Assembly (NCBI GenBank): GCA_003971905.1
Contig: RSEE01000136.1
Location: 1 to 64,000, forward strand
Length of the DNA: 64,000 bases
Reading direction: 5' to 3'
Origin: Moniliella sp. 'wahieum'
Taxonomy: Eukaryota
In this document: positions 1 to 42,600 of the stretch, piece by piece
Position numbering within the stretch: the first letter of the stretch is position 1
How the letters are laid out: each line of letters begins with the position of its first letter
Notes under the pieces: model-generated
What the model saw: only the letters and a program-made list of their open reading frames with translations
The model's database searches: none
What the model was told of the DNA's origin: nothing
Position numbers and translations under genes: made by a program

Positions 1-23
1 ATCAGGGACGGCCGGGGGGGGAC

Positions 24-4870: not shown

Positions 4871-5082
4871 TGCTAGCGCCAAATGAAGCACGGATATGGA
4901 CGATGCTCACCACGAGACGGCCATGCATGGTGACATGGGTGGTGGTGGTGGTGGATGTGGCTGGGGTTGGGGCGGTGGTGGTGGCGTGGCGGCGCTGGAT
5001 TAATGGTTTGCGCACACCAACATCAGATGCGCTGCGCCGGCAGCGCGCACAGCGGTGGACAGCGGTCGGATGGCCACAGGCC

Positions 5083-6137
5083 AGAGTCGGGACTGGACAC
5101 GGCGCAAGCAGCGTTGGAGGGCCGGCTATATTTGCTCAGGGCAAGCTCAGCGCACTGGTGTGCACTGTCCTGATCTGCAGCATGCATCGAAACACAGTTG
5201 GCATTTGCACCCCAGGCCCACCCGGCAGTACAGCAGGGCCGCGCTTTTGCAGTGAATCCCAACCGAGCTGGACCGAAGGCCTGAACGTTGAAGGCCTGAG
5301 GCCTGGGCGCTGGGCGTAAGCACTGGCAGCTCAGACTGAGCGCTGGGCCTGAGGGACGTGCGGGAGCGCGCTGCCAACGATGTACCTGAGCGCACACCCT
5401 GCGCCACTGCGTCCTCCGCAGGAGGCCGCCCCCCCCGCTCCGGCACGCGGCATCTTGGCAGCAGCTGCAAGCATTGCGCGTCACGCTTTTGCAGCTCCAG
5501 GCCAGCCCCGGCGTTCAACATTCAACGCTCCCCGGTAACGCACGTGGATGCGGTCGCCTGTCGGGCGTACCATCGTCACCAAACCGCGGCGTCCCCAGGG
5601 CGTCGCATGTCACACACCCATTGTAACCCACCCTCACACGTACATGCAATGCCCCATCCCGGTCATGCCACCGCGGTTGCACTCTGGCTCCACCCCGCAC
5701 GGAACATTCCCCGCCCCGGACCCTGTCACATCCGTTGCCGCATGCGGCGTTAGCGTGTGTCACATGTCACATGGCACATGCCGTGTTAGCGGGCGGCACA
5801 TGCGGGCTCATTAGTAAGTAGCCCCCATGCCGATCATTTCGAGCTGGCACCGCCAGGACACTGGCCCCGCACCCAAACTGTCAGAGGTCACCAACCGTCA
5901 GGCACCTCCCTTCGCCCTCCGCACGTTTCAGACGGGCCAGCGTAAACTCTGCATTCCAGGACACAGGCCCCGCGCCCAAACTGTCAGAGGTCACCATCTG
6001 TCAGGCGCCACATTTTCGCACTTACACACTGTGGTGCCTGACATTTTGCAACCTCTGCAATTCTGAGACGAAAAACGTCATTTTCATAGAGAAAATCGAC
6101 GGAGTTATGCAGTCCTTCACGTGAATATCTGACTAGG
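5083..6137. repeat. ~1.05-kb direct repeat, copy 2
   Basis: Matches 2096-3129 apart from small indels and one ~20-bp insertion near 5780. Confidence 0.95.
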
Positions 6138-6557
6138 GTAGATAGCTCGCTACCCGAAGGGGAGGGAGTTATGCCGAGGCGATAGCTCGCTATAAAATCG
6201 TCCGCTCTATGCAGCATATGGCCTCCGTTTTTCGATTGGGCCACCCGTTCAAAAGTTACACCCACCCATCCCTAACCCTACCCACCCCGACCCACCCCAT
6301 CCGTCGTATCTCGGCCGTGCACGGTCCGTTTGACCTCAGATTTCACACACCCCAGTCCAGAGGGTGCCCTTCCGATCCCCCTGCCACCAAAACATGACAC
6401 CCCTCTGGGCCGAATACAACACGTTCAAAGAAAAATGTTGGGCTACCCCCCAAACGACACCGAATATGGTGTCTGCCAGGTAGATCAGGAGGTGTGCTGA
6501 AAAAAAATATTTTTGCGTTGGGTGGTGGTGGTAGGTGGTGGCGACGGCCTTCCGGGT

Positions 6558-6591
<34 letters not shown>

Positions 6592-8833: not shown

Positions 8834-9055
8834 GTTGAACACGTTGAACGTTGAACGTTGAACGTTGACCGTTGAGCTTGAGCTTGAGCCTCAGGGGCCG
8901 CAAGCTTGACCTCAAGGCTGAGCGGTTGAACGTCGAGCGGTTGAACTTCAACGTTCAACCTTGAACGGTTGAACTGTTGAACGGTTGACCGGTTGAACGT
9001 TGAACGTTGAACGTTGAACGTTGAATATTGAATGTTGAACGTTGAACGTTGAAGA
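8834..9055. repeat. Tandem (AACGTTG)n heptamer array with palindromic-core variants
   Basis: TTGAACGTTGAACGTTGAACGTTGA... with variant units AATATTG, ACCGGTTG, AACGGTTG and AAGCTTG. Confidence 0.95.
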
Positions 9056-9486
9056 CGTAATCCCAATGCGGGGTCACCTTAACCGGCATATATATGTCAT
9101 GCCCCCCGGGGGTTGACCCTGTTCAAAACAGTGTATGTTTGCGAATTCGCGCCGGCTTGCGCTGCAACCTAGATCAGTCGAAAGCTACGAAGCACGCGCG
9201 TTTCATAATGGGTAGAGGTCGTCCACGTTATCGATAAAAAAAATACCAAGTGGGCGGAGTACCTCGGGTGACCCCCTCCTATGACACATTTTTGGGTGTG
9301 GTGCGCCAACCAGTGGTGGTGGTGGTGAGCCAATGGTACCGTTAGACTCGTACAGTGCCGCCGCACGCGCTCCGGCCATCAGAAACATCAAAAATAGCAG
9401 TTTCAAAAACCCGCCCCTAAATCTGGACCGGTCGGACACCCTTGTAATATACCCCCCCCATACCCCCCCCTCCAAACACCCTGTGT

Positions 9487-9604
9487 ATCCGCGGCCATAG
9501 AACTGTGAAAGCACCGCATCCCGTCCGATCTGCGAAGTTAACCACAGTATCGCCCAGTCAGTACTACGGTGGGGGACCACGTGGGAATCCTCGGTGCCGC
9601 GGTT
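9487..9604 (+). rRNA. 5S rRNA
   Basis: 118 nt ATCCGCGGCCATAGAAC...GCATCCCGTCCGATCTGCGAAGTTAA...AGTACTACGGTGGGGGACCACGTGGGAATCC...GCCGCGGTT. The ends pair (CCGCGGC/GCCGCGG) and the sequence resembles basidiomycete 5S as I recall it. Same strand as the large rRNA genes. Confidence 0.96.
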
Positions 9605-9605
9605 C

Positions 9606-9610
9606 TTTTT
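9606..9610 (+). terminator. RNA polymerase III oligo-T terminator of 5S
   Basis: TTTTT immediately after the 5S 3' end. Confidence 0.8.
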
Positions 9611-9889
9611 GCCCCCCCCCTCTTTGGTACGTGCCCCCCTCCCGCCCTCCTTTTGCACACCCACCCTCCATCGGCAGGGCTCCCCCCCGTACTAATACAC
9701 CCCGCCCCCATCGGCCACCGTTGCGGCGCTACACCCCATTCTACCCCCCATCTTTGACCCCCCGCCCATGCCCGGCAAGTGTTCCCCCCGCGCCCCCACT
9801 CCGCCCACACCTCCTTCCCACCCCCCTCTCCACTTCGTTCTAATACCACTTGGCCGTACCTCCAACGGTTCAGCAGCTACAGCACTTCC

Positions 9890-10920
9890 CCGCATACCTC
9901 ACCCTATAGTGCACATAGTACCTTCAGTGGTGCCCCCCTCCCTGGGTACCCACCCTACTGCTGCCCCACTCCACCCAGCACTAGTCCAATCCCTCCTCTA
10001 CAAGTCCAATTAGAGCCCCCCAGCCGCAGCTCCCACCGTCGAGGAGCTATAGTGCTGACCTCACCGCCTTCACCCTATAGGACCATGTGTACACCGTCAC
10101 CCCTCCGTGGGTACTCACCCTACAGCTGCCCCACTCCACCCAGCGCTAGTCCCACCCGTCCTCTAGAGGTCCAATTAGAACACCCCGCCCGCGGGACCAA
10201 CGGTGGAGGAGCTGTCGTGCTACCCTCGGCGGCCCTCACCCTATAGGACCATATATACCAATGGTACCACCTTCCAACCATCACCCCTCCCTGAGTACTC
10301 ACCCTGCAGCTGTCCCACTCCCCCCAGGTCTAGTCCATAGCTCCCTCTCCAAGTCCAATTAGTGCACTTTCGGGGTAGCAGCACATGGGGAGGGAGATGT
10401 GGTACTCTCCGTGCTCTTCACCCTATATAGTACATATACTGTCGGTACCACCTACCACCCGTCACCCCTCCCTCACCACTCCCGACAGCTGCCCCGCTTC
10501 GGCCAGCGCTAGTCCATAGCTCCCTCTCCAGGTCCAATTAGTACACTTCCGGGGTAGCAGCACATGGGGAGGGAGAAGTGGTACCCTCTGTGCTCTTCAC
10601 CCTATATAAGACCATATATACCCTCCGTACCACCTTCCAACCATCACCCCTCCATGACCACTCACCCGACAGCTGCCCCACTTCGCCCAGCTCTAGTCCT
10701 AGGCTGCCGTACCAAGTCCAATTAGTGCACTTTCGGGGTAGCAGCACATGGGGAGGGAGAAGTGGTACCCTCCGTGCTCTTCACCCTATATAGGACATAT
10801 ACTGTCGATACCACCTACCAACCGTCACCCCTCCATGACCACTCACCCGACAGCTGCCCCACTTCGCCCAGCGCTAGTCCTCGGCTGCCGTACCAAGTCC
10901 CATTAGTGCACTTCCGCCAC
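9890..10920. repeat. rDNA intergenic spacer subrepeats, ~6 copies of ~170-185 bp
   Basis: Recurring TCACCCTATA...ACAGCTGCCCCACT...CTAGTCC...GTCCAATTAG at ~9900, 10070, 10237, 10418, 10597 and 10781. Confidence 0.92.
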
Positions 10921-10974
10921 AGCAGCAACCCTAGTACACCTCACTTAGTACCATTCACCCTACAGACCCCTGTA

Positions 10975-21900: not shown

Positions 21901-24900
21901 GACACGAAGTGGATGTGCGGATTGGTAGGCAAGGCGCCGCTTACTTGGTACGCTGTGCTGCCGAGCGTGGCAAACGCCTACTGGCCACCCAGAAAGGGCT
22001 GCTGTCCCCAAGAATCGGGAGCGTAGGTCGGTTCGTGGCCAGGGCAGGCCGATATGGACGCGCCAGCCAAGGAGGGGGTACCTGGGCTGGGAAGCCGCGC
22101 GCGGCGAGGGTCCAGTGGCGGGGGAGTGCGGTGCCGATGTGGGTGCGGGTGTCCCCCCGGCACACCTGGACCGCTCGGTTTCGCGACGAGCGTTGGGTCG
22201 TCGCGTTGCGGCCGCTGCGTCGGTTGGCGCACCCACAGTTGCCTTTCATCCACATTGGCTGCGACCACCACCTGCAACCCTAGCACCGCGCTGAATTTAA
22301 TCTCGTCGCGTCGGGGCGGCTTTTGCTTCTGCGCCACCAACCAGCACTTCGGGCCCGCTGCTGCAGCTCGTGTCCTAGCTTCTTCTCCTCTCGCTGCGCA
22401 CCAAGGCGGATGCGTGCTCATGGGGGATGGCGTCCCTTGCCTCCGCCTCTTGCTACCCATCCTTGTCCATGCAACGCCCGATGAGAGAGCGCGGCTGGGA
22501 CGCACGCCTAGGCGATGGTCTGCAGCAGCATGCCGAGCAAGACGCGCGGTTCACTCTCGCCCACCCACGTGTTGTCGGTACGACGAACCGGGCCTTGCCT
22601 GCAAACGTGAATCGTGTCCTTCCCGAATCTGCCGCTTTTGCTCAAGCACGGTCGACACGATGCTTGGCGGAATGCAAATCAACCTGAAGGCGGCCCACCC
22701 TTGGGGTACTGACAACTGGATGATACGTGTGGTGGCAACGAAGGCAGCAGTAGGGATTGCCCACTCCCCTTGCTGGTCAGCAGCACGCATCGTGCACACC
22801 GCTCACAGCCAGCAGCGCTCCAACCCAAAGTACCACCGCTTGTGGATGCTTTCTTTGCCGGTATTTGCTGTCCTCAGTCGACACAAGCGTTGCAAGAATT
22901 TGAGGTCCAATATCAAGACGTGGGTGGAGTCATCGCCAGCTTCTGGCACGATCTGGTGCCTATGAACATGAGGCCGCGCTTCTGCTGATCGCCACCTCAA
23001 GCCCGAGGAATGGGGGTTATTAGCCATGGTGGTCTGCGACAAGCAGAAAAGAAACGGTACTGCTGCTGATCGCCCCTGATAGCACGCTTGGTTGCGGTGC
23101 ACACCTCTCTGGACTTACAACTCCAGGATGAGTCCAGCGCGCTACGTTGTTGGTGGAGATGCCGATGCCTGTATGTGGTTCATATTCTGTTGCTGTGGCC
23201 CAAGTTGCTGACCATCTCGCTTTTGTCAGACGTACGAACGGGGGGTCACGCACTCATACAGTGCATCAACTCGTCGTGTCAGCGCCTGCCCCAGCGAGTC
23301 GCTCGAGGCGCCAATGGAGGGAGTGCCGGCACTGCGGGCACTGCGCTGTTTGGCCATGAGCTGCACCACTGGCACAGACAATTGCATTTCCCGCTGCCGC
23401 GCGGCAACCGATGGCCCTTGTGTTTTTGCGAGGAGCAGATGCTGTTTGGTGCTGCTCTGTTGTGCAGGGCCATGACGGGCGCGCAGAACGAGTCCGGGGC
23501 CCAAAAGGCCACAGCGGGTGCCTCCCGCACTTTGGCAACGCAAAGAAAAAGGATGCGGGTCAGCTGAGACTGGCTTGCCCGCCCGCCAGAGAAGGTGTTT
23601 TATGAAAGGGAAAACAAGCTCAGCAGCAGCTTCATCGCTTCGTCCCCACGGGACTAGGCCTGGCCCATGGCCAGGCCGGGACCTGTCGCTCGTCATCCCC
23701 CCTTGCTGGACCCTAGGAGAATGGGGGTGTGTGGCTGGATCGATGGACCTCACTCTCGAAGGAGTCTGAGAATGGATATCGCCATCTGGTTCGCCGACTG
23801 GGCTAGCAGCCATGCCAGGATGCCTTCAGTGGGCGGTGATCATTTGGCAGCAGCTATCCTTCATGAGGTCTTCCGATGCTACATTGTCAATCTGGCGCGG
23901 CACATTGAGGTGGAAGCCGACGCATTCCCCGCACCGTCTTGCCCGCTGGGTGGGCACTTTCCCCCGCACCTGCATGAAGATGAAAAAAGCAGGTGCTCCA
24001 TCGGGCCCCTCTCTACATGGTAGGGCCTGACGCTTCGGTTCTTGGGGCACACGTCATTACTCCGGCACACGCGTTACGTAGGAAGGAGATGGATCTCTTT
24101 GTCGATACGGAGACCAAGACAAAGCACCAAAAGAACAGAACTGGTACAAAGTGTGTTACATTGATCTTTGCTGCGGGCCGACTACCCCATCGCGAAGCCA
24201 GTGCTGCTTTGGAGCACTGGAAGGAGAAACGAGCTTCGATTCCTATCGCGTGGCCACTGGCCATTGGGCGCCCTCACTTTTGCGCTGCGCGGTTCGACGT
24301 ATGAGGGTATCCCCACCCAACTGTACCATCCCTGTTGTTTGCGTGGATGGGGGGGGACGTTTTCTCCCTCCACCTATCGAGCCGAAGCACAGCCTTGAAA
24401 ACGGGCTAGGCATTGTCGGCGCTCTCGGTTCTCATGAACGCAAGACGAGCTAGATGTTTTTTTGCAGGGCGTTCTGAACTGCGTGGGCCACGCCCGTTTG
24501 GATGTTCAAGTTTAGTGCCAGTCGTAGGCCAAGGCGGGGAAGGTATCCGGCGTGCCGCATCCCTGGTCATCAGCGGTACCACTGTATCCAGCCGGATTGA
24601 TGCCTCCGTCAAGTGTGGGGCTGAGCGAGCCGAAGCAGAGCCGTCTGAAGATGCCGTAGGCGCAGAAGCCCTTCTGGCCAATGTGCCCAAGGAAGGACTT
24701 GGTGTTACTACTATGTCGGTGAGCCTATCCAACTCGGTCTGTGCTGGCCTCTTTTCGCTCTGAAGATTGGTGTGCGTCGGCGGCTCGCGGCATCAGCCTC
24801 GCCATCAGGACTCCATGGAGAACATAACATGGGCCATCAGGACTCCATGGAGAGCATGTCATGGCCCGCAAATGGTGAGGCTGATCGGAGATCGTAACCC

Positions 24901-26284
24901 TCACCACGCTGCCGATTCTAGGGGCCGAGGGAAGAGGAGCGGGCAGCATAGTGGGAGCGGGCGCCAAGACCTCGTGGGCTGGACTGGGCGCAGACGCGCA
25001 GCGTATGCTCATCGTCCCATTCTTTCTGATGGCGTTCGTCGTGGGGCGTGCTTGTCTGGATATTGACTCTGATTTGCGACGTATGTTACCGCGCTCACAG
25101 GTTCCTGTGTTTTTCTCCGTACGTCCTCCCAAGCGGCCAATCGTCGCGTAATGCATGAAAACGACACCCTACAAGACGGCTTTCCCTGTGGACCGTGCCT
25201 AAGAGCCAGGGGACGAGTTAATCATGGAAAGTAGGATGGCTAATATCCAAGTGCCTGAGCGACATGTGGGCGGGATGGGCTGTTGGACGGGAGGGAGGCA
25301 ACTGGTGGTGGCACAAGACGGAATAAGTCCACCTTGGTCACCAGTGTGCCTGTGATGGCCGTCGTGCGTCGCGAAGGGTTAGTTTGGGCGATGGTGGCGG
25401 CTTGCGTTGCTTGAGCAAGTCGCAAGAACTAGTAGCTTGAATATTGTGAAGCTTGAAGAGGCTGAGACCTTGTCACGGGTCGGGCTAGATGGTACGAAGC
25501 GTACAAACAGGGAAGGAGCGAGACGCTCGGACGAAGACACTGGAAATGGGAGCGAGAGCAGCCAGGCCATGACATGTGACAGCTATTGATGCTTAGCGCG
25601 TAGCGCCGACCAGACGCCTGCAGTATTCATTCTCACCCCGCCGGGCGAGCATGCACTTGTCGCTGCCCACCGGCTGCCCGCAGTCTCAGGGTGTGGCGCG
25701 AAGTGACTAGTGACTGTGACTGGTGACTGCGACATGTGACGCATGTGACGCGTGAGTGATTGTGACCACGGGCGATCGATGATCGATGATCGATGATCCA
25801 TATCCATGATCGATGATCGATGATCATCGATGCAGTTGATGACGCAACACACACCGTCGCAGCAATGGCGAGCAAGGCGGGGGGGATCGGTTGGTGCCTA
25901 GCAAGCGTCGCAGACTCGCCTGTGGCCTCCTGTGGCGGGAGGCGAACCTGCCTCGGATACTGGCCAATGCAAAGGCAACTCCTTATGTATACCACCCCAC
26001 ACGAGAAGAGCACAAGACACGCGTCGCAGTTTCAACGTTCAACCATCGATCACTGATTAATGATCGACGACCATACTCTGTATCTGTGCGGTGCGACTCA
26101 GTATAACATGTACGTATGGTAACCGCTAAGCCGCCGAAAAAGCGGAGGGCGTACGGATACTTCGGCCGAATTGGAGCTACCACACTCACGCACGTTTCCC
26201 CACAACCTGCCATAGGACACTTAAAAAGGCAGATGATTCCATCCCCCCACCCTTCCTTACTCTTCACCATCACCACCTACTACC

Positions 26285-27076: not shown

Positions 27077-28963
27077 CGCATTCTCTCTTTTCCGTGTGCA
27101 TGAAGCGAAGCGCGTGTTCCAAGCCACATCCGATTTGATCAGATTTGATCGTATGCAAACTCAGCTCAGGCCCGTCGGCTCTACCCAACACTCGATCCCG
27201 CTCCCCAATTCAATTCAGTCCGATCAAGTGAATCGGTAGCCATCGCGTGGTTATCGAGTTGTCGTATCCTTGCCATATAGTCGACCCGCGCCCGTTTATC
27301 TTACATTTCTATTGCGCCTGCGCAAACCTTCCCTCTGTTCTTTGCCTCCCTTTCTACCTCTGTTCGTTAGCCTTTTGATCTAGCCTGTACCCATGGTCGG
27401 TGGGGGTTCTTTCCCCATCCCCGTCCTCGCCCTTCAGGCCTATCCTGTTCACCAAACCTGCCCGTTTCCATGAATTGATTCTGTGGGCAACTTCTGCTCG
27501 TAGTTATTCCTCCGCCCTCGTCCTTGTCCTCTAGCTCCCGTGGCTTGCTTTCAGCCGTTCACATCCAAACAGGTCGGTGTGCCCTCCTCGTGCCACGTGG
27601 AAAAAGCCGCGTGGGTCCCCCTTCCACCGAAGCCGCCTTTTCAGTCAGAGTTCAGCTCCAGCTCTGACAGTGTTTGTCCTCCACTCCCCCCTCCCGTGCC
27701 TGAGCCTCGAAGGCTTCATACGCGTTACTACCGTCCAAGCTGGTGCAATGTACTAGCCATGCAACATCTGCAGCCGCCTCTGTTGTACGCGAGAGGTCAC
27801 TCCTTGTCCCTAATCCTGCTCCGACCCACCAATCAGCCCAACCGCGTAACTCCCGTGAGTTGACCTTAAGACCTCCAAGGGATCGTACCTCTGACCTCTC
27901 TTCCCCGGGCGTTCCACCTGGCGGTGCCTGCCCCTGACAGTGTCATATATAAGTGTATGCAGCAGATAAGGGCATTTTGAATCCAAAACGTAAAAGTTCA
28001 GCTGACAGGAGAGTTACTCTCTGCGCTCACCAGTCCTTTCCACGTTTGCCACTAGTCGTCTTGCTTCAATTATGTCCTCCCATTCTGGGATTTGATTCCA
28101 ACCATGCTTGTGCCCACGCAGTAGTACTAGATCTGATCATTCCCATCTCGAGACTCAGTAGTCTCATCAGTTGGCGGCTGATGCGTGGCCTATAGAATAC
28201 TGTGGCAGCCTTTCCTCTTTTTCAGATATCAAGACGATATGGGTGGAAGAATGAATCGATAGTGGCAGTGGCGCGAAAAAGGAAGAAAGGTGTGTCTACA
28301 GCCAGCTGCCAGGTCTTAAACAATGATTGTTTTTGGATCGATGGCATAATAGTCTGACAAGTGCATATATCTGCTGTAATTACCCCATTGCCAACTAGTG
28401 ATGCGCATCATGCATCATGCATCGTGCACATCATGGCCAAATCCTGCATCACATTAATCACGCTGCTTCACGCATGACGTCATGCGTCGACGCGCCAGCG
28501 GGCGAGATCTCGGAGCGGCTCACACCCCCTCTTCTATGCCCCACCGACGCCGTCAGCAAGGCACTGAGAGCTGCCAGTCCGCCCTACACGCTTCGCCTCG
28601 ACTTCACTCCTCATCGGCATACACTGATATCTCGTGACAGGCCACCTGCCCGGCCAGGTATACTCCTGCCCCAAGCCGACGGACGCTGCGCGCGCGCGCT
28701 TGCTGCTACATCCCAGCAGCATGGGGGTAGTCAGACACGACGCGCGAGTGTGATCGAGTGATCTCCGCATCTATATTGTCGCTTCTTCACCCGCCTGTGT
28801 TCATCAGCCGGTAAGCGTTTAAATACCCTGATCCTGCTTCAATCGCCATTCTGGCCAACCCCATCCAGACGTCCGGCCATCCCTCCCTCCCTCAGTCCGA
28901 GGAGTGTTTGGCCTGTATACGCCTCCACAGCGAACGTATCGCCCTCCCCTCCAATACGACACG

Positions 28964-30278: not shown

Positions 30279-32213
30279 GCTCTGGCCACAGCATATGGGT
30301 TTCCCTACCACCCTTTTACCGAGCCCCTAGGCATCTTTTTCACTTTGATGATTGTCGTCTGTCCCCAACAGTCATCTGTTTTCCATCCAAGGCCTACTAA
30401 ACTCACACTGAGAGCCAACAGAACTCTCAACAAGCCCCTTCTCCTGGTCATCCTCCCCTTCTCACCAAGAGTCCTACACGGTGACAGCTCGATCCGTCAA
30501 CCTTCTTATACTGTAGCATATTCCATTTCGAATACCAACTATCCATCCTCGTTTTCGCCTCCCATGATGTGCATGATGGTTCCTCTAACCAGGCTCACAA
30601 TCTACCAGGCTCACAATCTCGCAGAAAACAGGGGATAAAAGCCGAGTGCGGTGATCCCCGCTTCAGACTGGCCCGGCGCGTAAGGGGAAGACGTGCAAAT
30701 AGCTGGACGAGGCAATCCACATGTATTGATAGAACGCAGAGAAGATTGGTGGGTAAAAAGGAGTTGTGGAAGATGGCGAAGAGATGACGGCAGCAGGGAG
30801 GGTTGCTGCACGCCTGATACCTTTATCCTCATATGCCTCGTGGCCGCGTCGATGGATCAAGCGTGGCGCGTAACACGTAGTTGGCAATGGGCCTGCTATC
30901 CAATATAGAACCTGGGGCCTGAGAGGCCTGAGATCGAGAGGCGCCCACCGGCAAAAAGACGCAGGTACTCGATACACTGCAGGCAAATACAGAGCGGAAA
31001 CCATCAGAGCCATCATGCATCACCCGTCCGCAGTCGCACAATGGCGCTGCGCACCATCGAAGGCACTGGGTCTGTGCGATGAGCGCCACCTACCAAGTCT
31101 CCTGTCGAGATGCGGGGGCGCACCCGCTGCGGACGCGCTGACGACGGACCGGGGGAGGCGAGGCTGGCGACGCAGGACGAGGCAGTGGCTAGCGGTCGGC
31201 GGAGCAGCAGCGACCAACGGAAAACGAACACAGATCGGGGCACAGACCCTGCACCAGCCGAACGGTCGTGCGCACGGGCCCATCGATGTTCGTCTCGCGC
31301 TAGCATCATGCATCATGCATCACAACAATAAGAAGCCACAGTAGCATACGTGGGTGGAGAGCGGCCGGAAGGAGAGAGCGGCCACGTAGCCCCTGTCACA
31401 TGCATGTCACATGCTCCATGCCACATGTCAATGTCACATGATGCATGACGACTGACGCTACTGAAGCTATGATCCTGTGTCCTCGGCCTACTCAGTACTC
31501 AACGTACTCAACGGTGAACTCCACTACGTACGTCACACGTCAACGTTCAACCAGTCGGCGTGGGCTTCTGCATCAGATAATCGATGATCGATGAATTGGT
31601 GAAGCTTAGCTTGAAGCTTGAGGCTTCAAGACGTTGAAGCTTCCCGTGAAGCTGGAAGCTTAGAAGACGCACTCGGGCTTCAGCGCTTCAGCGCCGGCGA
31701 GAGCTAACCCTCCTGAGGACGGTCGCCGGGTATTGAATTCGGACAAGAATTGCTAATTGTGGGAGCACGGGGATTCAGAACTCAGGATCCCAGAGAAACG
31801 CGCACAGGCACCGCGGACGACGGAGTTCGAGGGACACGATTCCATTTGTAACATGTAACAGGTAAGCGCTGTTGGATGTTGGGTACGTACCTAACCTATT
31901 TTGGCCACACCGAAAGAGACGCTTCGATCGTTCCCAACCAGTTTCATGAGGCGGTTCAACGTTCAACAAACCTTAACTGTGGCGCAGAGCGCTAGCTAGT
32001 CCCCTCTCCACGACACGGGGCACCGCACACCACGCACCGCGCACCCACGTTGTCAATTCTTCTCCCTGTGGACTCCGAATCCCCAGCTGGCTTTCACAGG
32101 GAAAGTAATATATGTAGAGGCCCCCGCAGCCTCTTCTGCGCAGTTCGCGTTCTCTCTCTCCCTTCCTCACGTCCATCGACCATCCTATTAACATCTGCGT
32201 TTCCCCTCGACCC

Positions 32214-33927
32214 ATGTCCTACCCTGGTCCTTCCATCCAATATCCGCCTTCGGGCCAGGCGGCTCCCTCGACTCCGCACCGGCCTCGGCGTGGCCCCATT
32301 CGGATTATCGTCCTGTGCGATGGCACGTGGGCGTCGCGAGAGGCGGTGTTTACCAAGGTGCAACAGGGTGTGGCTACATCCAAGACGGCGTCGGCTGACT
32401 GGTACACCAATGTGGCCTGTTGGCGCAATGTATTCTGCCTGCTGCCGACCGGGCAGATGGGAACGGGTACGTGCGCCCGCAGATCCTGCACTACATGACG
32501 GGGTTGGGGTCCATGCCGGACTTGAAGCAGAAAATTGTCCAGGGCGCCACGGGCCAAGGGATTGACGATAAGGTACTAGAGGGCATCCGGTTCATTTACG
32601 ACAATTACCAGCCCGGGGACGAGATCTTGCTCTTTGGCTTCTCCCGCGGCGCGTTTACGGCGCGGTGCATTGCTGGCGTGATTGACTTTGCCGGCGTGCT
32701 GACCAAGCCGCAGAGCATTCGTCTCAACGAACTGTGGAAGGCGTACATTGAACGTCGACCAGACCAGCCTTGGACGATTGCCAGGGCGTGCTACGTGTTG
32801 CATGACATTACCGGTCGTTGGCCGAACGGGAGTTCGGTCGGAGTAGCGAGCGTGGCATCGGACCTGGTCGCGGCACATTTGCCCAACGGGTGTCCCAGTC
32901 GCTCAAGCACATCAGTATCCTGCGTCCGTCTCGTTCGACACGTTGACCCAAGGTGCCAATCCTGCGAACCTGTGATGCCTAGTCCTACGGTAGAAGTGGT
33001 GCCTATCAAGGTGGTAGGTGTGTGGGACACGGTGGCTGCTCTTGGGGTGCCCGGGCTGTTCAAGACGTTGGCCAATGAGCATATGACTTCCTTTTTCGAC
33101 CCGGGCTTGGGTGCCGGGGTGGAGAATGGGTTCCATGCACTATCACTTCACGAGGATCGCAAAGATTTCCTACCTACCTTGGGGTACCAACAAAAAAACG
33201 CTCCTCGCAACCAGATTCTCAAGCAAACGTGGTTCCAAGGGTGCCACGCTGATGTGGGTGGAGGCTATTCTCTCCATGGCCTGTCCGACATTACCTTAGC
33301 TTGGATGGTGGCTCAACTGCACGACCATCCCTCGGGCCGCTGGGGATTGACTTTGACCACCTCCGGTCGCTGCAGGACAAGCGGTACGTGGGCCAAGCAG
33401 GCGGAGCACGAGAGTCGGATGGCGATCGAGGAGCAGGCGGTGCGGCAGGTGGACAATGAGCGCCTGACCAAGGCCGATCTGGTTGGTGTCGTATGGAGCG
33501 ACATGCTCCAAGGTGGGCAGTAGCGCCCGGCACGAATCGCTTCACTTTTCGTCGTCGTGGGTGGGACGTACAATCCTGTACCTCGCCGCAGTTTGAGGCG
33601 CTGCGCAAGCAGGACCCGAACCGGTTGACGTACCTTTGGCAGCAAGCTAGCAACCCCAATACGCTCCTCCCGACCGAGCGAGCTCTTCGGGGCGCCGGAA
33701 CGGAGAAGCCCGTGCCGCCGACTCTGCAAGACAAGGCCTACGACCATATGATGCAGACGTCCCAAGGCTTGCAAAAAGTGGCGGACCAGTTTGTCAACAA
33801 GTTCCACGTTTCCGACACGCACAACTTACGGCCTGGCACGTTGGGGCAGGGTATCGAGGCCATGCGTTCTCGCTTGGACCACAGTCCTTTGTCAATGAAG
33901 GAGCGTGTTGACAAGGACAGCCGCTAA
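32214..33927 (+). CDS. DUF2235 / Tle1-like alpha/beta hydrolase (putative phospholipase); apparent frameshifts
   Basis: Motifs in order: RIIVLCDGTW, TNV, Y..GLG, YQPGDEILLFGFSRGAFTAR, IKVVGVWDTV, HALSLHEDRKDF.PTL, QTWFQGCHADVGGG, LSDITLAWM. Confidence 0.93.
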
Positions 33928-34244
33928 GTGCTAAACGTTGTCGATTTTCGGATTGGCCGTTGTGGACCTTTGGATTCTTCCTATTCTCCTATTCGCGAGT
34001 TTCCCGATATGAATCACTTCCTGGCTATCAACAAGTCCAATAGTATCCATAGGCTTTTCGCACACAATGATTAGTTGCTTATGCCAGCCGCAGTGGGATC
34101 CAAACACGGGGCAGCGCAACAAAACGAACGGCTTCTGGCCCGAAACGAGGGACAAGAGAAAGGGCAAAGCGAGGGACAAGACGAGGGACAAGACGAACTA
34201 GGGAAGGGACGAGCACAAGGACAGCTCAGGCCGCCGTCTCCACC

Positions 34245-37200
34245 TCAGAACGTTCCACAAAGCCGAGGGGAACATAAAGTAGTCCAAGACCTTGTCCAAC
34301 CGCTGGCAAGTTCCTCCACCTGTGCCCGGCGAGCTTTACGTTTCCTCGTACGCAGTCTCCGAGAGACGAGCGATCTCTTCCAGCGCGTCAATCTTAGCCT
34401 GAGCCGGGCGGTGGCCAGCTCATCGTTCGAAGCGGGACCCAAGGGGGCGGGAACAGCGTCTTCAGCTCCGGTTGTGCCGTCTTGCGGTGTGGCAAGGGGC
34501 ACGATCCCAGCCGCGGCCTCGGCAGCCCAGCGGGGCCCTTCACCAGGCGCAAGGGGGGGTACCCCCGCGGCGGAAAAGCTGGCGCGGGTCTTACTCTTTC
34601 TACTTGGTGCCGCGGCCACCGCCTCATTTCGGCCTTGACAACAGCCCGCTGCCACTTGCCATCTCCCGAGTGCGCTTCTCGTCCGCTTCGACAGCATCAA
34701 GGCGATACTGGATGTGCTTGATCACTTTGAAGATCCAGTAGGGCCAGTTAACCATCTGCCACCTCGGTTCCTGTTCCAACACGAACTTTTCTTGGGCCCA
34801 CACTTGTGCTTCTGGCGACTGGGGTGGGGGTCGCACGTCCGGCTCCGACTCCCGCCTCGTTCATGGTCTCCTCCGAGGCCTCGTCCGCATGCACTGGTTT
34901 CTCGTCCTCATTTTGGGACTCATCCCCAGCCTTCTCGGTAGCGTCGGGAGGTGGGGGGTGGTGTGGTTGGCATCTTCAGTTTCCATTTCCTCGACGGGGA
35001 CAGGATCCCGTTGAGGCTCGGGGGAACATCGGGTTGGTTGATCGTGCTCGTGTCCAGCTCGGGGGTGACTCTGAGTTCGGCGACAGTCGAAGGGGGGGGA
35101 ACGGTTTGCCGTAAATGTAGAGCCCCCAGGCCCAACGGCCCTGGGTGTTCTTGGGCATAGATTCGACATACTCGGTCAAGTGCCAATACTCACGACCGTC
35201 AACGTCGGTGCCAAGCGGGCCCGAACGCTCTTGGTTCGGTTGAGGGTGGTTGTAGAGTGCACCTTGCGTTGCTTGAACAGGTTCCAGGCCACGTTGCGTT
35301 GCTCGCGTGTTTTCTACAGAGAGGGGCAATACATTAGTTAGCAAAAAAACAGCAACCAAAGGACGGGATTGGGGAGGGGGGGGGGGAGACGTACCTTGCG
35401 TCCCAATTCCTCGATGTACCGTTGGACAGTCTCGTTGTCCAACTTTTCTTGAGCGCTGCATGCGTTCCTTGTGCTCCGTCTTGATCGGGTAAGGTCCGCA
35501 CGAGTCCCGCTCCGAAGCGGCGACATTGTTCCACGCCTCCACCAGGTCCGTCCGAACGGCATTGGTACGAGGCACAAGGGTGTTGACCAACGCGCCGAGA
35601 ATAGCCACTCGTTGTTCGAAAGGCGGGGCAGGGACAGGAGCCGTCGGAGGTGGGGTGGGCGTCACAACCACTTCCACCGCTCCAGCGTGCTCTGGTTCGA
35701 CCGAGCCATCCTGGTCGGGGGCAAGCGACGGGCTGCGCTGCTGGGAAGAGCCGAGGCCTGACGCGAGATGGATACGGAAGCCGATTGGGCCCGGGAAGTT
35801 AGCCCTGATGGCGGCTGTCCCCGGGGGTGCGGCCAGAGCGCCTCAGCTCCGTGGCTCGGTCCCGATGCACTTTCTTTGCTGATGCGGGGGGTACGTCCAC
35901 GGGGGTTTGCGCACCAGTTGAGTCGGTCTGATGATCTTCATCTTCGTCTTCACTGGCTTCCGCGGAAGGGGCACCGTCATAGTCCTTATCGTCAGCGCCA
36001 TCTCGTCCATGTCGTCATCGCTGTGGATGGATGCCTCAGCAAATTCTTGCGAGGAATATCAATGTTGTTGAGCTTGGCTCGTCCGGCTCGAGTAAGGACG
36101 CGTCTGCTTGTTCCCGGAGCCAGGGAACATCTGACATTGGCGTAGCTACCTGCTCATCGGGCACTTCGACAAAGTTGTGCTCAACGTCAGGCAGGTCCTC
36201 AATCTCCACTGCTCTGCCTTGAGCCACTCGCGTGCTGCCTCCCATGCTTCACCACGCATCGATGCGTCAGGCGCATTGTGTAGCATCCGCACCGCCCGGA
36301 CCAAGGGCAACTCCGGCAGAGCACCGCTGTAGTTTGGTTGGCATGGTCTGAAGCGACTTGGTCGTCGTACCGGCCAAACAAGCAGTCACTGCCTCGAGAA
36401 TCTGGTTGAGCATGCGCGGATCCCAGTCATCAAACCTGTCCAGCCGACGAAGAACAGAACCGAGGCAGGGGTAGCAACCGCATCAAAACGAACCAGAGCC
36501 TCGTAAATCCACATGCGGGCGAACAGATTGGCAGTGGGCAAGGACGAGTCGACAGCACCTGTCAGCGGTGCCTCCTCCAACTTGGGAGCAACCACAACGG
36601 GCTTGGGGCGGATCTTGGGGATGTCCGAAGCAGCCGATTTCTTCCTTTGGCAGGCGTCGTCTTCCCTCCCTTGGTGGGTGGCTTTGGCAGCCTTAGTAGG
36701 CGTTGCTTTGGCTCCCTTGGTGGGCGTCGCTTTGGTTCCCTTGGTGGGCGTAGCTTTGGTCTGCCCGTAGCCTTGGCTTTGGTCGAGGCTGGCCTTGTCT
36801 TGGCCGTAGCTTTGGCGGCTGTCTTGCCTTTGGCGGTCGATGACTTGGCTTTGGACGTGTAGTTTTGGTCCCCTTGCCAGTGGTCGCTTTGGCCTTGGTG
36901 GAAGCCTCTTGGGTGCGGCCTTGCCCTTGGAGGCAGCAGTGGTTTTGACAGACTTGCCCTTGGCGGTGGTGAGGACGGGTCAGGCTCCGAGCCAGAGGCG
37001 GGCTCCTGGTCTTGCCCATCGACATCCATCAGTTCTGCACCGTTGCTGTCGTCTTGCACATCACTTCGTCCTGGGCTTTGAACAAGGACTTGGGCTTGCC
37101 ATTGGGGAGGAACTTGAGCGCCAGGGCCTCATCGTCCGAGCTGTCTGGAGATTGCGGGGTCTGAGCCTTGACCTTGGCGGATTTGGTTTGTTTGGTGGAT

Positions 37201-38097
37201 TTGGCAGCACCCTTTGTAGGTTTAGTCGTATCCTTGGGCTTGGCTTTTCCTTTCCCTTTGGCGTTGGCATTGGCATTGGCATTGGCATTGGCCTTGGTCT
37301 TGGGCTTGGTCTTGGCCTTGGCCTTGCCTGTGCTGGCAGGAGCATCCGAAAGAGTTTCGTCCGCCTCATCGAGGGAAGTATGGGGGCGCTCATCGGCTCT
37401 AGCATGGGAAAGACGATCGTGGCCTTCCTCCGTGTGAGCCAAAGGAGTCAGACCCCGACGGTGGCGACAGACGGAGCAATCGCACGTGCCCACGCACCGA
37501 GGGCAAGCGAACAAGTAGCCCGCCTCGGACGCGGGGCACATCTGGCTCGGGTCCAGACCAAGTTGGACTTTGTTGGGGTCGCCCGCGGTGGGGTCCCGGC
37601 CGCGGGCAAGGATATCATCGCGTGAGAGGCCGTAGTAGACCTTGAGGGAGTAGTCGCAATAGCGCAAGCGGCAACGCTGGTGATTGTCGCGCATGTTGGT
37701 GCACTGCAGCATGGGGCGAGGGCAGAAACGGCGGTGCTGGTGGCAGGGGCCGAGGTGGCCCGGTTGAGCATCGGGACTCATTTGTCCCTCAACCGGCTCG
37801 GTGTCCCCAAGCAGAAGGGGGCTGGCAGCCATGGCCTGGGCCTGTTGGGTGCGGCCGCGGCCGTACGCGGCTCTGCCTTTGGCGGTCGAGACACGGCCGC
37901 CCGGGCGGGCAATCGCATCGGCGGACGAGTCGGCGTCGAGGGACTGGTCGGGCTGGGGGTGGGACTGGATTTTGGTTTTCTTGTTGGCGACGGCGAGCGA
38001 GGGCGAACGGGCAGATGTGCTCTTGCGTTTGGACGCGGGTGCGGAGGGGGGCGTGTGCCCTGGGGACGGGGGGAGGTGGGGATCGTCGGGTGTGCAT
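34245..38097 (-). CDS. zf-4CXXC_R1 zinc-finger protein with Lys/Ala/Thr-rich linker and WHIM/WSD-like motif (chromatin-associated); introns and frameshifts, ends approximate
   Basis: CHQHRR...C...C...YCDYSL..YY...CPRCVGTCDCSVCR..RGL.PL fits zf-4CXXC_R1. RSGPLGTDVDGREYW fits the LGxD..G..YW WHIM/WSD motif. Intron signal near 35295-35393. Confidence 0.8.
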
Positions 38098-39655
38098 GGA
38101 GGGGCAGGAGGTGGCAACGACGGGTGGGGGGCGGGACGGAGGCGGAGGTGGAGGCGGAGGCGGAGGGCAGGCGGAGGGAGGCGGCGGTGGAGACGGGGCG
38201 GCAGGTGATAGTGAAGCGCAGCGCAGCGGACACAGCCGGCCAGAAAGCACAGCAGGCGCACACACGAGATGGAAGGCAGGAGCCAAGAGACGCCGGCTGG
38301 ACGCGCTGAATTTTCCTCCGGCCAGCGCAGCCATCGGGCACGAGTACGAGTGGGGCACGGCGCCAGCCTGTCACCCTCCCGCCCACAAGACGCGTCCGCG
38401 CGTCGGCCGCGTCTGGATTTGGCGCGCCTTTGCTTCCGCCCGCTGGCGCGCTGCCAATCACACGCTCCAACACGCCGCGTGCCTCGCCTGCTCCGCCCCG
38501 CCGCCCTCACGCTGTCCCGCCATGGAGCTCCCGCAGCACACACACCCATCGCACGGGCTCAAGCATGCGCGTCCGTTGGGGCAGATCTATAAATCGACGA
38601 GTTCGCGTGATGGCCCCCGTGTGCGCTCTATTCCGCCCTTGGGTGATCGCGTTAGGGGACGCGCACGACCGACGCGGCCATGTTTGTCAGCTCAGGGAGG
38701 AGGGGCACGATCAGTGCCGCATTCGCTTGCCCCCCCGGAGACGGTAGCAGCAGCCCCCATGCTACTGTGCGCTGTAAAGAACAAATAAAAGAATGCTTCT
38801 GCTGCTGTTCTGACCACCTCTTCGGCTTGGCTCTCAGTCGATCAGCCGCTCCTCCCCCCTCGGCCACAGGCAGTGCAGACGCTGCGCCGTTGCTGTTCCC
38901 GTCGCTGCGGGCGGAGCAACGGGAGGAGGGCTGGCGGTTATGATGGAGGATGGAGGATGGTTTCTAACCTGCCGCTGCTCGACGCGTGCAGCCACGCGTT
39001 TGGGGGTTGGAAACGTGCGTGACCAGTGATCACCGGTGCTAAATGGTTCGCACACTGGCCCCGCGCCTGGGTGCGATTGGGCTCGCGCTTGCAACTTTCA
39101 TTCTGCATGTTCGACGTTCGTTGTTCGTTGTTCTCTGTTCAGTATGTATTACGCAGTGTTCAACTTGAACGTTCAGTTGAACGTTCAGTTGAACTGCCAG
39201 GCTGCGCCCCTCGGCGCCTGGCCGCACCTGCGCCAACCTAATAGGATGCCTCTACTTCATCCTCCAACCATCTGTGCTCCGAGAGGCGCCGCTCTGGTCG
39301 CCATTCCATTCCTCCTCTTCTCTACGCAGTAGTAGCCTCACGGTGCGCACCATGGGCACGCAGATAGCTGTCGCTGGGTAGTACGAACTGTCTCTCTGAC
39401 GGAACTTCAACTGCAGGCGCACGTGCACCCACGTTGACTGGACCATACCTTGCCCCGTTCCCATCCTACCTGCAGACCACCCGGACGGACGTACAATTCA
39501 GTCTAGTCATAGTCCTAGCCCTAGCCCTAGCCCTAGCCCGAGCCCGAGCCACACACGACAAACAAACGCGACCAGGCCCAGCAGGGGCGCAGGGCGAGGG
39601 ACAAAAGGAGTAAGGGAGCGAGGGTGCAAGCGCGCGGGACGGATGGCAGGGCACG

Positions 39656-42600
39656 CTAACTCCGCGCCAATGCAACGATCAAGTCCCATCCGCCAAACAA
39701 GCGACGAACCGGAACACGCCGGATCTAGCGGGTGACGGGACGCGCTGGCGTGCAGCGGGTCCGGGGGTGCCATGCGCCTGGCTCACGTCCTGGTCCGGGT
39801 CCTGCGCAGGGTCCTGCGCAAGGTCCTGTGCTGTGTGGGGGGTCTGGGTCCGGGTCGGTGTCCGGGTCGTGGGCGCAGCACTTTGCGCAGTTCAGCTACA
39901 AAGTGTGTGTCAGCAGTCCCTCCTCTGGTCCGGGGTGAGGTACGGCGAAGTTCCCATGCGCGAGCGGGTTCTGTGCCGGATCCCGAGCCGGGGTGGTGGG
40001 TAGGGGTCGGCGAGACCGGTGGGAAGACGAGGAAGTCAGCGGGGGTCTGGAGGGAGCGGAGGAAAGATCCCATCAGGAGAAGATCAAGGCGACGAGGACG
40101 ACGGTGGAGGGGGTACTTGGCGTTGGCACAGTGCGCGGAACGGGTTGGGCGTCGAAGGTCCCAAGTTAGATGCTGTGGTGGCCGTGCGGCTACGGCGGTG
40201 GGTAGGGTGCAGAGCGTCGCCGCGAGGCGAGGGTGGTAGAGTCGGAGATACTCTGTCCCAAGCGCGACAGGGGCGAGTTGGCTAAAACTAATGATGGGGA
40301 GGCGCCTGAGCTCGGAGGGCCTAAGGAGCCCGTGGTAACTCCTTGGGATTCCTGCGCGCCTAGCGTGTGGGAACCTCCGTCGCGCACATGGGTAGCCTCC
40401 GTGGGTCCCTGCACCTCGTCGTCCTCGGGACTGGCTTCCTTGTTGGTCGACTTGCCATGGGCCTTGGGGTCGGACTTGGCCTGGCGCGCACAGGTTCCGG
40501 GACAGAGATGCGTTCATGTGGGCAGCAAGCGGGGTATGGTACAAGGCAGGGACATACGAGTGTTCCTCGGGATCAGCCAGTGTGTCCGAAACCTCGTTGG
40601 CCTAGGGGCGGGTTAGTTCTTGCCACACACATACAAGCGAAGAGGGGTCCGAGGGGGGGGGGGGGGGGGGTAGGACGTACTTGCATAGGACGGGGACGGG
40701 ATCCGCTGGACTCTCGCGCTGGAGCAGAGCCACGAAAGTTTTGTTGACATGAATCACGTCCATGGGCCATTGTTGAACCAGACCAACGACGGCAGTTTGG
40801 TCGGTTTGGCCGTGCCATTTTCCGTGCGCGGAGTACCGGTTCCTCGTCCGAATCCTCATCTTGTTGGGCAAAAGGTTGCTGTATCCCCCGGAGGTGGGGT
40901 ACGGGGCACAATGGTGCACGTGAGCAGTGCATCGGTCCAGTTCTGGTCGGGCAGAGGGATTGCCGCATCGTCCACTGCGGCCAGGTAGAGCGCACGAGGT
41001 GCCGGCGAGGCCGGTGCTGGGAATCCAGCGTGGCAGCAAGCAAGCTGAAGGCGGCAAGTCGTACACCGCAGCCTCGAGGGGACCGGGTCCGAATGAGGAG
41101 GATCAGCATCCAAGTTGAGCAAGCTAGACGCGTCGCTATCGGGCTGGTTGTCTCCCCCGCCCGATCCTAAGCCCGAGCCCGAGCCCAAGCCAAGCCCAAG
41201 CCCGATTCCGGCCGTGGGCGTCGTCCCGCCGCCGGTTCTCGTCGCTCCCCCGCTGTGGACTGGTCGGGGGGATCGGTGATTGTCGCGCATCGGACAGCGA
41301 GTGGGTCAAACTGGTGGAACGTAAGAGGGAAGCCTTGACCTCGGCGCCGCGGTCTGAGAAGGTAAAGTAGGAGACGGATGGCGAGGCGGGCACGCGTACC
41401 GCCTCGGCGGTGATGGTGTACCCCTAGGAAAGTGGCCTAGCTCCACGGTCACTTCCAGCACGATGTCCCTTGGACGGTGGGGCCATCACGTTTGGACAAG
41501 CTGACCGCCCTGCGGCCTCGCCAATCGCATTGGACAAGGACAGAGGGGACGTGGGGTCGGCAGCACTGTTGGATGTGGTGCGGGACCGAGAACCAAGGGG
41601 AGCGAGGAGCGGCAGGTCGCTGGCCGAGGACGGGAAGCCCGGTTGGTGGGAGGCAAGGCGGGGCTAGCCTGTTGGGATGATGGCGCGTCGGGGTCGTCGG
41701 TGAACGCACTAAAGCTAAGTGTGCGTCGGTCGCTTCGGGCGGTGGGGCGGCGCAGTTCGCGCATGGTAGAAAAGTGCGCGGAATCATGGTGCGTGGACCT
41801 GGACGCGGACGCGGACCCAGCGGGCGCGGTGGCGGCGGCGGACGGAGGCCGAAGCACCCAGACGAATGAGCGCGCGAGCTTCAAACTTTTTAGTGCGTGG
41901 ATCAAAGTCTTGCAACAAGAGTGTCCTGTTCTCAGCGCCCTTGGGCAAGGTGAGCGCCCAGGGCAGATCTGGATCTTCGTCCCGCCCGTCCCCAAGGACC
42001 ACGACACTGGACGGCGGCAGCGTGACTGCCGGTCCGATCCCGGAACTAGGCGCTGGGCCCTTGAGGTAGGCTTCGATTTGGTTGATGGTCTTGGGCAGTG
42101 CTGCGTTCCAGGAGGTGTTGACGGAGGAAGGGACCGAGCCGCCAAAGTCGATGGCCATGACGTGGGTGGTGGGTAGAAGGGATAGCATAGGCTGTGGAAG
42201 TATAAGGATCAACCGTTTCCAAGATCCAACCGTCAATCAGGACCCGCCCGACGGGCAGGTTGGCCGGGTTAAGTTTCCCACCAAACACATAATCTGGCGA
42301 ACCATCTTCCTTCTTGCTCGACGGCAGGGACAAGCCTGACGCACGCGCAATGCTCTCCCACGAACAAGACGCCGCGGCATAAAAGTAGGCGATGGGCTTG
42401 CCCGGGTTGGCGGCCGCGACATCGGCTGTGCCCAGGCCTGCGTCGGGCGGAATGGGCTCGAGCGCGGGTTGATCAGCATAGCGATGGGTCGAGGCTTGCG
42501 CGCGCGCCAAATGGTTCGCCTGGCTCGGGGGCAGTGCGGGCCGTCAAATGGGCAACGCAAAGGCGCGGCCACGAAAGGGGAAGGAAGGTTTGGTCGTGGC

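Follow-up and report, generated by a model that had tools for sequence, protein, structure and literature searches.

We examined the first 64,000 nucleotides of contig RSEE01000136.1 from the fungus Moniliella sp. 'wahieum' (positions 1 to 64,000 of the contig, forward strand; hereafter the window, to which all counts below refer). Between the genes of this window, whose G+C content is ~58%, lie islands of short tandem repeats with a period of 7 bases, many of them built from heptamers that are palindromic around a free centre base. About ten such islands concentrate NNTNANN palindromes together with period-7 stretches, at 2.5k (with a duplicate at 5.5k), 6.5k, 7.5-9.1k, 25.5-26.5k, 28.0-28.5k, 31.0-32.0k, 39.0-39.5k, 49.0-52.0k, 54.0-54.5k and 56.5-57.9k. 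Both features are nearly absent from 9.6-25.3k, 32.1-38.9k, 39.5-49k and 58.4-64k. As argued below, the islands look more like mutational scars than like a gene-control code.

An earlier note on this DNA had singled out the island at 25700-26070, placing it 200-600 bp before the start of a PEBP-like open reading frame (ORF), and had listed similar clusters before the 5S, epsin (ENTH), DUF2235, zf-4CXXC and GH79 genes and at 57560-57730. All strings quoted for the first island are located there, its measured distance is 216-586 bp before the ATG at 26286, and the further clusters are likewise present. The islands contain the following repeats.

2304-2789: AGGCCTG in two copies (2304-2317) and TGTCACA in 2.3 copies (2774-2789).
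Second copy of a 3-kb tandem duplication: AGGCCTG (5292-5305) and TGTCACA (5758-5773), identical to the first copy.
7500-9055, upstream of the 5S gene, the largest island in the ribosomal DNA (rDNA) spacers: CATGTC/GTCAC repeats (7500-7700), GATGATC-type units (7720-7790), CATGATG (8005-8018), CCTCAGG arrays (8056-8104) and GTTGAAC arrays (8841-8868 and 8925-9053).
25700-26070: AGTGACT in two copies (25702-25715), GTGACTG in two copies (25716-25729), CATGTGACG in two copies (25733-25751), GATCGAT/GATGATC arrays (25774-25798 and 25806-25825), TCAACGTTCA (26033-26042) and TGATTAATGA (26054-26063).
28395-28490, a small island before the ENTH-like gene: CATCATG in 2.7 copies (28405-28423) and the perfect 14-bp palindrome GCATGACGTCATGC (28472-28485), the latter ~480 bp before that gene.
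31300-31970, 120-790 bp before the DUF2235 gene: CATCATG in 2.9 copies (31303-31322), TGTCACA-type units (31394-31447), GATGATC in 2.1 copies (31580-31594), CTTGAAG-type units (31600-31694), TGTAACA in two copies (31847-31860) and GTTCAAC in two copies (31954-31967).
39100-39200, a small island before the minus-strand zf-4CXXC gene: TGTTCGT in 3.7 copies (39108-39133) and TTGAACGTTCAG in 2.5 copies (39165-39194), the latter made of GTTGAAC-type halves of alternating orientation at spacing 6.
49440-50780, the largest island, upstream of the minus-strand GH79-like gene: TCTGAGA in 3.1 copies (49443-49464), GTTTAAC in 2.1 copies (49628-49642), GCTGATC-type units (49671-49692), GCTCAGC/GCTGAGC/GCTGAAC units (50387-50530), AGTGACT in 3.6 copies (50595-50619) and GCTGAGC in two copies (50740-50753).
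51295-51600: GTTGAAC/GCTGAAG/GCTCAGC units (51300-51345), CATGATG in 3.1 copies (51530-51551) and GTGAC repeats (51565-51600).
53955-54242: CAATTGG in two copies (53955-53968), GTTACTA in two copies (54114-54127) and GGTAACC in two copies (54224-54237).
57560-57730: TGTCACT in 2.3 copies (57565-57580) and GCATGACATGTGACATCC (57714-57731).

The label "heptamer" given to these clusters holds in that period 7 dominates, but it is incomplete, as 6-, 8-, 9- and 12-base units occur in them too (for example GGTTGAAC, TTCAAC and TTGAACGTTCAG). At 54219-54242, the sequence reads CCAAG-(GGTAACC)x2-CTTGG, the duplicated core of a 17-bp perfect palindrome. The two leftmost entries belong to a ~3-kb tandem duplication (2060-3060 / 5047-6067) with 97% identity across the aligned 1 kb; its copies differ by a 22-bp insertion or deletion (indel) beside the TGTCACA array, which is not heptamer-based, and by a few indels of 1-3 bases.

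To quantify the period, exact tandem repeats were tallied as maximal runs holding two or more copies of a primitive unit, and the tallies were compared with 20 third-order Markov simulations. Period-7 repeats number 51, against a simulated mean of 4.1 (maximum 8). This 12-fold excess compares with 1.5- to 5-fold for periods 4-6 and 8 (6 observed vs 1.1 simulated at period 8, 53 vs 14 at period 6, 94 vs 55 at period 5). Pairs of TGA/TCA trinucleotides are likewise in excess, at 130 vs 45 expected for spacing 7, 82 vs 50 for spacing 6 and 86 vs 47 for spacing 14. Control trinucleotides at spacing 7 respond much more weakly (GTC/GAC 85 vs 60, AGT/ACT 48 vs 31, CTG/CAG 114 vs 98).

The palindromic nature of the units, also proposed in the earlier note, was borne out by these repeats: in 29 of the 51, the unit can be rotated into a palindrome with a free centre base, compared with 10.4% by chance (1,708 of 16,380 primitive 7-mers). 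Only 1 of 53 units has a palindromic rotation at period 6, and none of 6 at period 8. Fifteen distinct palindromic heptamers are represented, 14 with T at position 3 and A at position 5, so that the unit consensus is NNT-N-ANN. Palindromes of this class are enriched across the window (263 vs 156.5 +/- 16), and the other centre classes are not (ANT 183 vs 169, CNG 325 vs 340, GNC 339 vs 337).

Ordinary replication slippage could in principle produce such arrays, if hairpin-prone palindromic heptamers arising by chance served as proto-repeats and expanded in unconstrained DNA, with no sequence-specific enzyme involved. It would suit arrays of 3-5 copies that decay into imperfect ones, as in simple-sequence DNA, and it makes a mobile element, of which none was found in the window, unnecessary. 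Single strands of the islands also have a modest folding advantage over shuffled sequence (z = -2.1 and -2.3). Like microsatellites and minisatellites ("cryptic simplicity"), the islands consist of short tandem units in non-coding DNA with perfect and imperfect copies mixed. They differ from these in their specific period of 7, in their palindromic units with a T-N-A core and in the palindromic register of the duplicated window described next. The large excess and the palindromy are confined to period 7, the core is needed (ANT-, CNG- and GNC-centred palindromes being unenriched), and a 7-base palindrome with a free centre gives a 2-bp stem at best. We consider slippage as the sole origin of the islands rather unlikely.

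The register in which the units are duplicated bears on this point. After removal of the three runs in the second copy of the 3-kb duplication, 48 runs were analyzed, 27 of them with palindromic units. Among the 21 exact 14-bp two-copy events, the duplicated window is itself a palindromic heptamer in 6 (AGTGACT, TGTAACA, GTTCAAC, GCTCAGC, GCTGAGC, GGTAACC), where 1/64 is expected (binomial P = 6.5e-7). Palindromic arrays are in palindromic register at their start in 11 of 27 cases (P = 7e-4) and at their end in 10 of 27 (P = 3e-3), compared with an expectation of 1/7. Six arrays are in register at both ends, and in these the symmetry reaches into the flanks: with five positions taken per side, 16 of 30 are complementary, where chance would give 25%.

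Relations between neighbouring copies follow the same spacing. Identical neighbouring TNA-centred units occur 32 times at spacing 7 and 11 times at spacing 14, compared with 1-6 times each at the control spacings of 5, 6, 8-13, 15 and 21. Where neighbours differ by one mismatch (n = 25), the centre base differs in a single pair, indicating that the copies are direct and not inverted; the remaining mismatches fall at positions 1, 2, 6 and 7 in 9, 5, 7 and 3 pairs, respectively.

The palindromic register argues against slippage, which has no reason to choose a register, whereas a symmetric staggered cut does have one. Together, the sharp unit length, the symmetry exclusive to period 7, the fixed T-N-A core and the palindromic register point to an enzyme that would act on a symmetric site with a 7-base stagger followed by fill-in. 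Target-site duplications originate in just this manner.

We next consider where the arrays lie relative to genes. Their placement was assessed against nine genes, five of them firm and four weak or approximate: those listed here together with the ENTH-like and GH79-like genes.

9487-9605, plus strand: eukaryotic 5S gene (Rfam).
13948-18470, plus strand: 18S-5.8S-28S unit (Rfam).
ATG at 26286: PEBP-like ORF, a Pfam match below the cut-off.
~32091-33930, plus strand: DUF2235 gene (Tle1-like lipase domain), placed by homologues and used as a 5′ and 3′ anchor; no period-7 arrays inside.
~34229-35292, minus strand: P0121-like gene, from a match to the homologue P0121; convergent with the DUF2235 gene.
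37032-38558, minus strand: zf-4CXXC_R1 ORF, with a Pfam score of 23.6 bits, narrowly over the cut-off.
46030 down to at least 41862, minus strand: large START-domain gene, placed by homologues over a minimum of its first ~1,390 codons; no palindromic arrays inside.

The Pfam scan covered 359 ORFs, namely all 106 of at least 150 amino acids (aa) and 253 of the 340 of 75-149 aa; the 87 unscanned ones lie in 1-14,062. At E <= 0.001, it returned four domains only among the ORFs scanned (DUF2235, zf-4CXXC_R1, ENTH and GH79C). ENTH (21.7 bits) and GH79C (22.3 bits) score under the cut-off, as does PEBP (14.8 bits, E = 0.036), and the names PEBP, ENTH and GH79 for these ORFs are weakly supported. The DUF2235/Tle1-like lipase domain lies in ORF 32399-33520, whose best named relatives are found in Tilletiaria anomala (45% identity), Tilletia horrida and Sympodiomycopsis. 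Together with the eukaryotic rRNA genes, these relatives assign the window to a basidiomycete of the Ustilaginomycotina, close to the Exobasidiomycetes. Homologues of the START-domain gene range from 734 to 2,510 aa.

The avoidance of genes that the earlier note had described is confirmed, with none of the 27 palindromic arrays lying in the rRNA genes or the nine gene bodies (19.4 kb, 30% of the window; P ~6e-5 if the arrays are independent, a caveat given their clustering). Its statement that the clusters sit upstream of genes stands in part. Fourteen of the 27 palindromic arrays fall within 1 kb upstream of the nine placed genes (9 kb, 14% of the window; P ~4e-6 with the same caveat), but the 5′ flanks of the P0121-like gene and the rRNA operon are empty, and that of the START-domain gene (46031-47176) holds only an imperfect, non-palindromic TCAAGCG array (3.6 copies, 46866-46890). 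By gene, the upstream 1 kb contains three palindromic arrays for 5S, three for the PEBP-like ORF, one for the ENTH-like gene, five for DUF2235 and two for the GH79-like gene. The zf-4CXXC, START, P0121-like and rRNA operon flanks have none, although related 7- and 12-base repeats are present upstream of zf-4CXXC.

No palindromic arrays were found in the downstream 1-kb windows of placed genes, apart from the one that doubles as the DUF2235 upstream region, nor in 18471-25285, which may be coding. The sole clear convergent gap (33931-34228, 300 bp) and the few introns, a small sample, likewise contain none. The 5S-18S spacer at 9606-13947 (4.3 kb), which is certainly non-coding, has zero palindromic heptamer arrays. 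Because this spacer is empty, a lack of coding constraint cannot alone explain where the arrays lie. Because two firm 5′ flanks are empty as well, the arrays are not a universal promoter feature. Rather, they shun genes and favour some 5′ flanks.

Such a distribution raises the possibility of cis-regulatory arrays, in which selection would maintain sites bound by dimeric transcription factors, or TGA half-sites 7 bases apart, in promoters. Besides the upstream position of 14 of the 27 arrays, this account could draw on the palindromes themselves, which are typical of dimeric factors, and on the perfect ATGACGTCAT-type palindrome at 28472-28485 (GCATGACGTCATGC), which we take to resemble a CRE/ATF-type site. 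With AP-1/CRE-type bZIP site clusters, the islands share 7- to 8-base palindromes upstream of genes and this one CRE-like palindrome. Unlike such clusters, they have no common recognition sequence, are arranged in direct tandem with TGA-TGA pairs dominating, show no orientation and are not universal to promoters.

Several further observations run counter to a regulatory role. The 15 palindromic heptamers have only T-N-A in common, and the same units occupy a 1.5-kb stretch of rDNA spacer. The P0121-like gene and the rRNA operon have promoters without arrays. A 7-base spacing is out of step with the helical repeat, and the TGA repeats are direct rather than inverted and therefore not dimer half-site pairs. 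Finally, the direction of the neighbouring gene does not dictate the strand of TGA-TGA and TCA-TCA pairs (13 and 13 upstream of 5S, 4 and 7 before the plus-strand DUF2235 gene, 10 and 2 before the minus-strand GH79-like gene), which show no orientation bias relative to the gene. Given the diversity of units and the strand symmetry, the code of TGA half-sites that the earlier note had offered is not supported and, like selection for regulatory sites in general, appears distinctly improbable.

The explanation that we tentatively favour, with somewhat less than even confidence, is that the clusters are footprints of cut-and-paste transposons that make 7-bp duplications (of the hAT7 or Kyakuja kind), later expanded by slippage. 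Of the two possibilities raised in the earlier note, that of scars accumulating at open promoter chromatin fits best, given the exact palindromic 7-base duplication, the lack of orientation relative to genes and the 15 diverse units. The counts above demonstrate the period, palindromy, register of duplication, strand symmetry and distribution; the enzyme, the cycle of insertion and excision and the link to open chromatin are steps that we infer.

Under such a mechanism, a dimeric, symmetric enzyme would cut the two strands 7 bases apart around a palindromic NNT-N-ANN site, and fill-in and rejoining would leave the heptamer duplicated in tandem. The likeliest agent would be a cut-and-paste DNA transposon with 7-bp target-site duplications that inserts and is later excised. 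Every fresh copy would be a fresh target, such that many rounds could build intergenic islands, and replication slippage would then lengthen the arrays. Where the duplication is palindromic, the palindromic nucleotides gained at one flank would match how the other flank begins, so that microhomology joining would tend to restore an exact copy or drop one base, which may account for clean arrays and 6-base variants. Point mutations and 1-base changes at junctions would yield the observed mixture of 6-, 7- and 8-base units. The bias toward 5′ intergenic DNA could reflect a preference of the element for open chromatin combined with selection purging 7-base insertions from genes. Both hAT and P elements favour nucleosome-free 5′ regions, and the target of Tn10 is NGCTNAGCN.

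Known elements provide precedents for most of these features. PMC4168063 gives GTANTAC as the consensus of the 7-bp duplications of Galileo (P superfamily), set within a 15-bp palindromic target motif, and describes transposon target motifs as palindromes that reach past the duplication. Among Basidiomycota, 7-bp duplications are attributed to hAT7 of rust fungi and to Kyakuja of Agaricomycotina (mushroom-forming fungi) in PMC12730594, and Dada elements have duplications of 6-7 bp according to PMC3706591. PMC5499845 describes hairpinned flanks and end joining for hAT, Mutator-like and Transib elements, and PMC5873905 reports Ds footprints in Candida that all carry short deletions or palindromic additions at the joint. 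Such deletions and additions at hAT excision joints would explain the 6- and 8-base variants. The islands resemble hAT7, Kyakuja, Galileo and 1360 in their exact 7-bp direct duplication and in a palindromic target round a free centre base (GTANTAC for Galileo), and resemble footprints of elements with 7-bp target-site duplications in their symmetry into the flanks and in the 1-base junction variants that end joining predicts. They differ in the consensus, which is NNTNANN here, and in that no element or terminal repeat was seen in the window and no transposase among its 359 scanned ORFs. They differ also in scale, with stacks of up to 5 copies and islands of up to 1.5 kb. In the open-access literature searched, we found no description of such islands, whether as heptamer or 7-bp tandem arrays in fungi or Ustilaginomycotina or as transposon footprints.

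A number of findings weigh against transposon footprints. First, 15 of the 21 two-copy events have non-palindromic windows, four of these becoming palindromic when their units are rotated to a different register. Neighbouring copies show no significant concentration of mismatches at unit junctions (12 at positions 1 and 7, 12 at positions 2 and 6; chi-square P = 0.09). The excess of NNTNANN palindromes remains outside strongly periodic stretches (209 vs 158 +/- 11), so duplication alone is insufficient. Second, the window offers no source: a search for inverted terminal repeats bordered by duplications yielded one 7-bp candidate (41692-45264, in the START-domain gene), which is probably due to chance; no dispersed repeat family connects the islands within the 64 kb; and no transposase domain was detected by Pfam among the 359 ORFs scanned. 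In PMC5751038, Ustilaginomycotina genomes are described as compact and repeat-poor. Third, some islands, such as 50380-50760, consist almost entirely of such units, which implies either an extreme hotspot, with very many hits in one place, or much secondary slippage. Many arrays are exact, whereas hAT footprints are usually imperfect, and the identity of the arrays in both copies of the 3-kb duplication gives no sign of recent change.

Two variants of the transposon explanation were rejected. A 3-bp TNA duplication with 2 bases contributed by each transposon end would need 11 element termini for 11 different 4-base palindromes, and a foldback-type element is at odds with islands that have no long inverted arms.

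The same geometry could instead arise from a host process, in which breaks with a 7-base stagger, made again and again at NNTNANN in open promoter DNA by a domesticated transposase or some other dimeric nuclease, are filled in and joined. This account shares with transposon footprints the evidence from period, register, flanks and spacing, and nothing in the window distinguishes the two. It suits the absence of an element in 64 kb and the very dense local packing of events. Against it, the Pfam-scanned ORFs of the window revealed no candidate gene, and a 7-base stagger is not known to us from any host nuclease. We regard such a nuclease as quite unlikely. The broader proposition, that a lineage-specific, host-encoded process with a 7-base stagger manufactures promoter and spacer DNA from nothing, possibly akin to the bacterial heptamer excess, we regard as unlikely. 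If it were true, a sizeable share of the intergenic sequence would be the product of one enzymatic mutational process.

That bacterial excess is itself a potential parallel. Heptameric repeats are over-represented in bacterial genomes, little studied and without a known mechanism, according to Rehm et al. (PMC4692102). We found the 28-base (GTTGAAC)x4 in at least 120 metagenome stretches, a count that is uncalibrated in that no control pattern was scanned, and this occurrence could hint that the bacterial mechanism acts in this fungus too. Among the matches listed, the 34 loci that reach 8 kb or more all have a prokaryotic look (0.53-0.99 of their sequence is covered by ORFs of at least 200 aa, compared with 0.35 of the fungal window), and many of these prokaryote-like contigs carry further intergenic heptamer arrays, mostly of non-palindromic units. 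Units of the metagenome arrays include GTTGAAC, ATTGACA, CCTCACG and AATTCGC, often with related variants adjacent (e.g. metagenome loci L070:5366-14685, L001:2777-3110 and L030:1036-7674).

The islands share a period of 7 and an intergenic location with the bacterial heptanucleotide repeats covered in PMC4692102 (cyanobacterial repeats, GGGAATC of Xanthomonas and GGGGAYT of Nostoc), and GTTGAAC arrays with the prokaryote-like contigs. The bacterial repeats differ in being mostly non-palindromic, often G-rich, longer and often arranged with inverted arms; no inverted repeat of at least 40 nt occurs in the islands. Palindromic units are a minority among the other heptamers of the prokaryote-like contigs (3 of 18 in L070, compared with 29 of 51 here). 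The hosts also belong to different domains of life, the window being fungal by its eukaryotic rRNAs and its homologues from Tilletiaria and Tilletia. A shared mechanism is very improbable in our estimation.

On balance, we rate the islands as an unusually clean signature of either target-site-duplication scars or heptameric simple repeats. If they are transposon footprints, one kind of event, a symmetric staggered duplication of 7 bases, would have written much of the non-coding DNA before genes of this fungus. The islands would then be a legible account of the places hit in the genome (open chromatin, and perhaps hotspots of recombination or insertion), a source of fast change in promoter length and sequence, and a eukaryotic counterpart of the long-unexplained excess of 7-base repeats in bacteria. 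Should the arrays merely be footprints of a known transposon family, they would form an unusually clear yet ordinary example.

The rDNA of the window has features of its own. A single unit is present, with 5S upstream on the same strand and non-rDNA sequence at both sides. The 28S match (16138-18470) spans model positions 1-3401 on just 2,333 bases of DNA (1,903 bits), leaving ~1 kb missing. The unit may be an orphan or degenerate copy, may mark the end of an array or may reflect collapse in the assembly. Within the 5S-18S spacer lie six copies of a C-rich subrepeat of ~180 bases (9904-10927) and an extra repeat pair (11222-11388 / 12001-12167).

Elsewhere, no homologue was found for the plus-strand ORF at 22027-22962. 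A long plus-strand ORF region at 60717-62390 contains internal repeats of ~513 and ~171 bases in 3-5 copies with 61-89% identity. This region has no Pfam domain and no usable Atlas match, and its product may be a lineage-specific repeat protein; the plus-strand ORF 61454-62653 likewise yielded no usable Atlas match. The 5′ end of the START-domain gene overlaps low-complexity repeats, GGTGGC-type and histidine/proline-rich, at 45.5-46.2k. Further along this gene, an imperfect GAGAGGG repeat (43927-43949) sits within a 97-bp gap separating homologue matches, a gap that is probably an intron. The placed genes tend to have a C-rich sense strand, with GC skew negative across the plus-strand genes at 26-31k and positive across the minus-strand genes at 36-49k.

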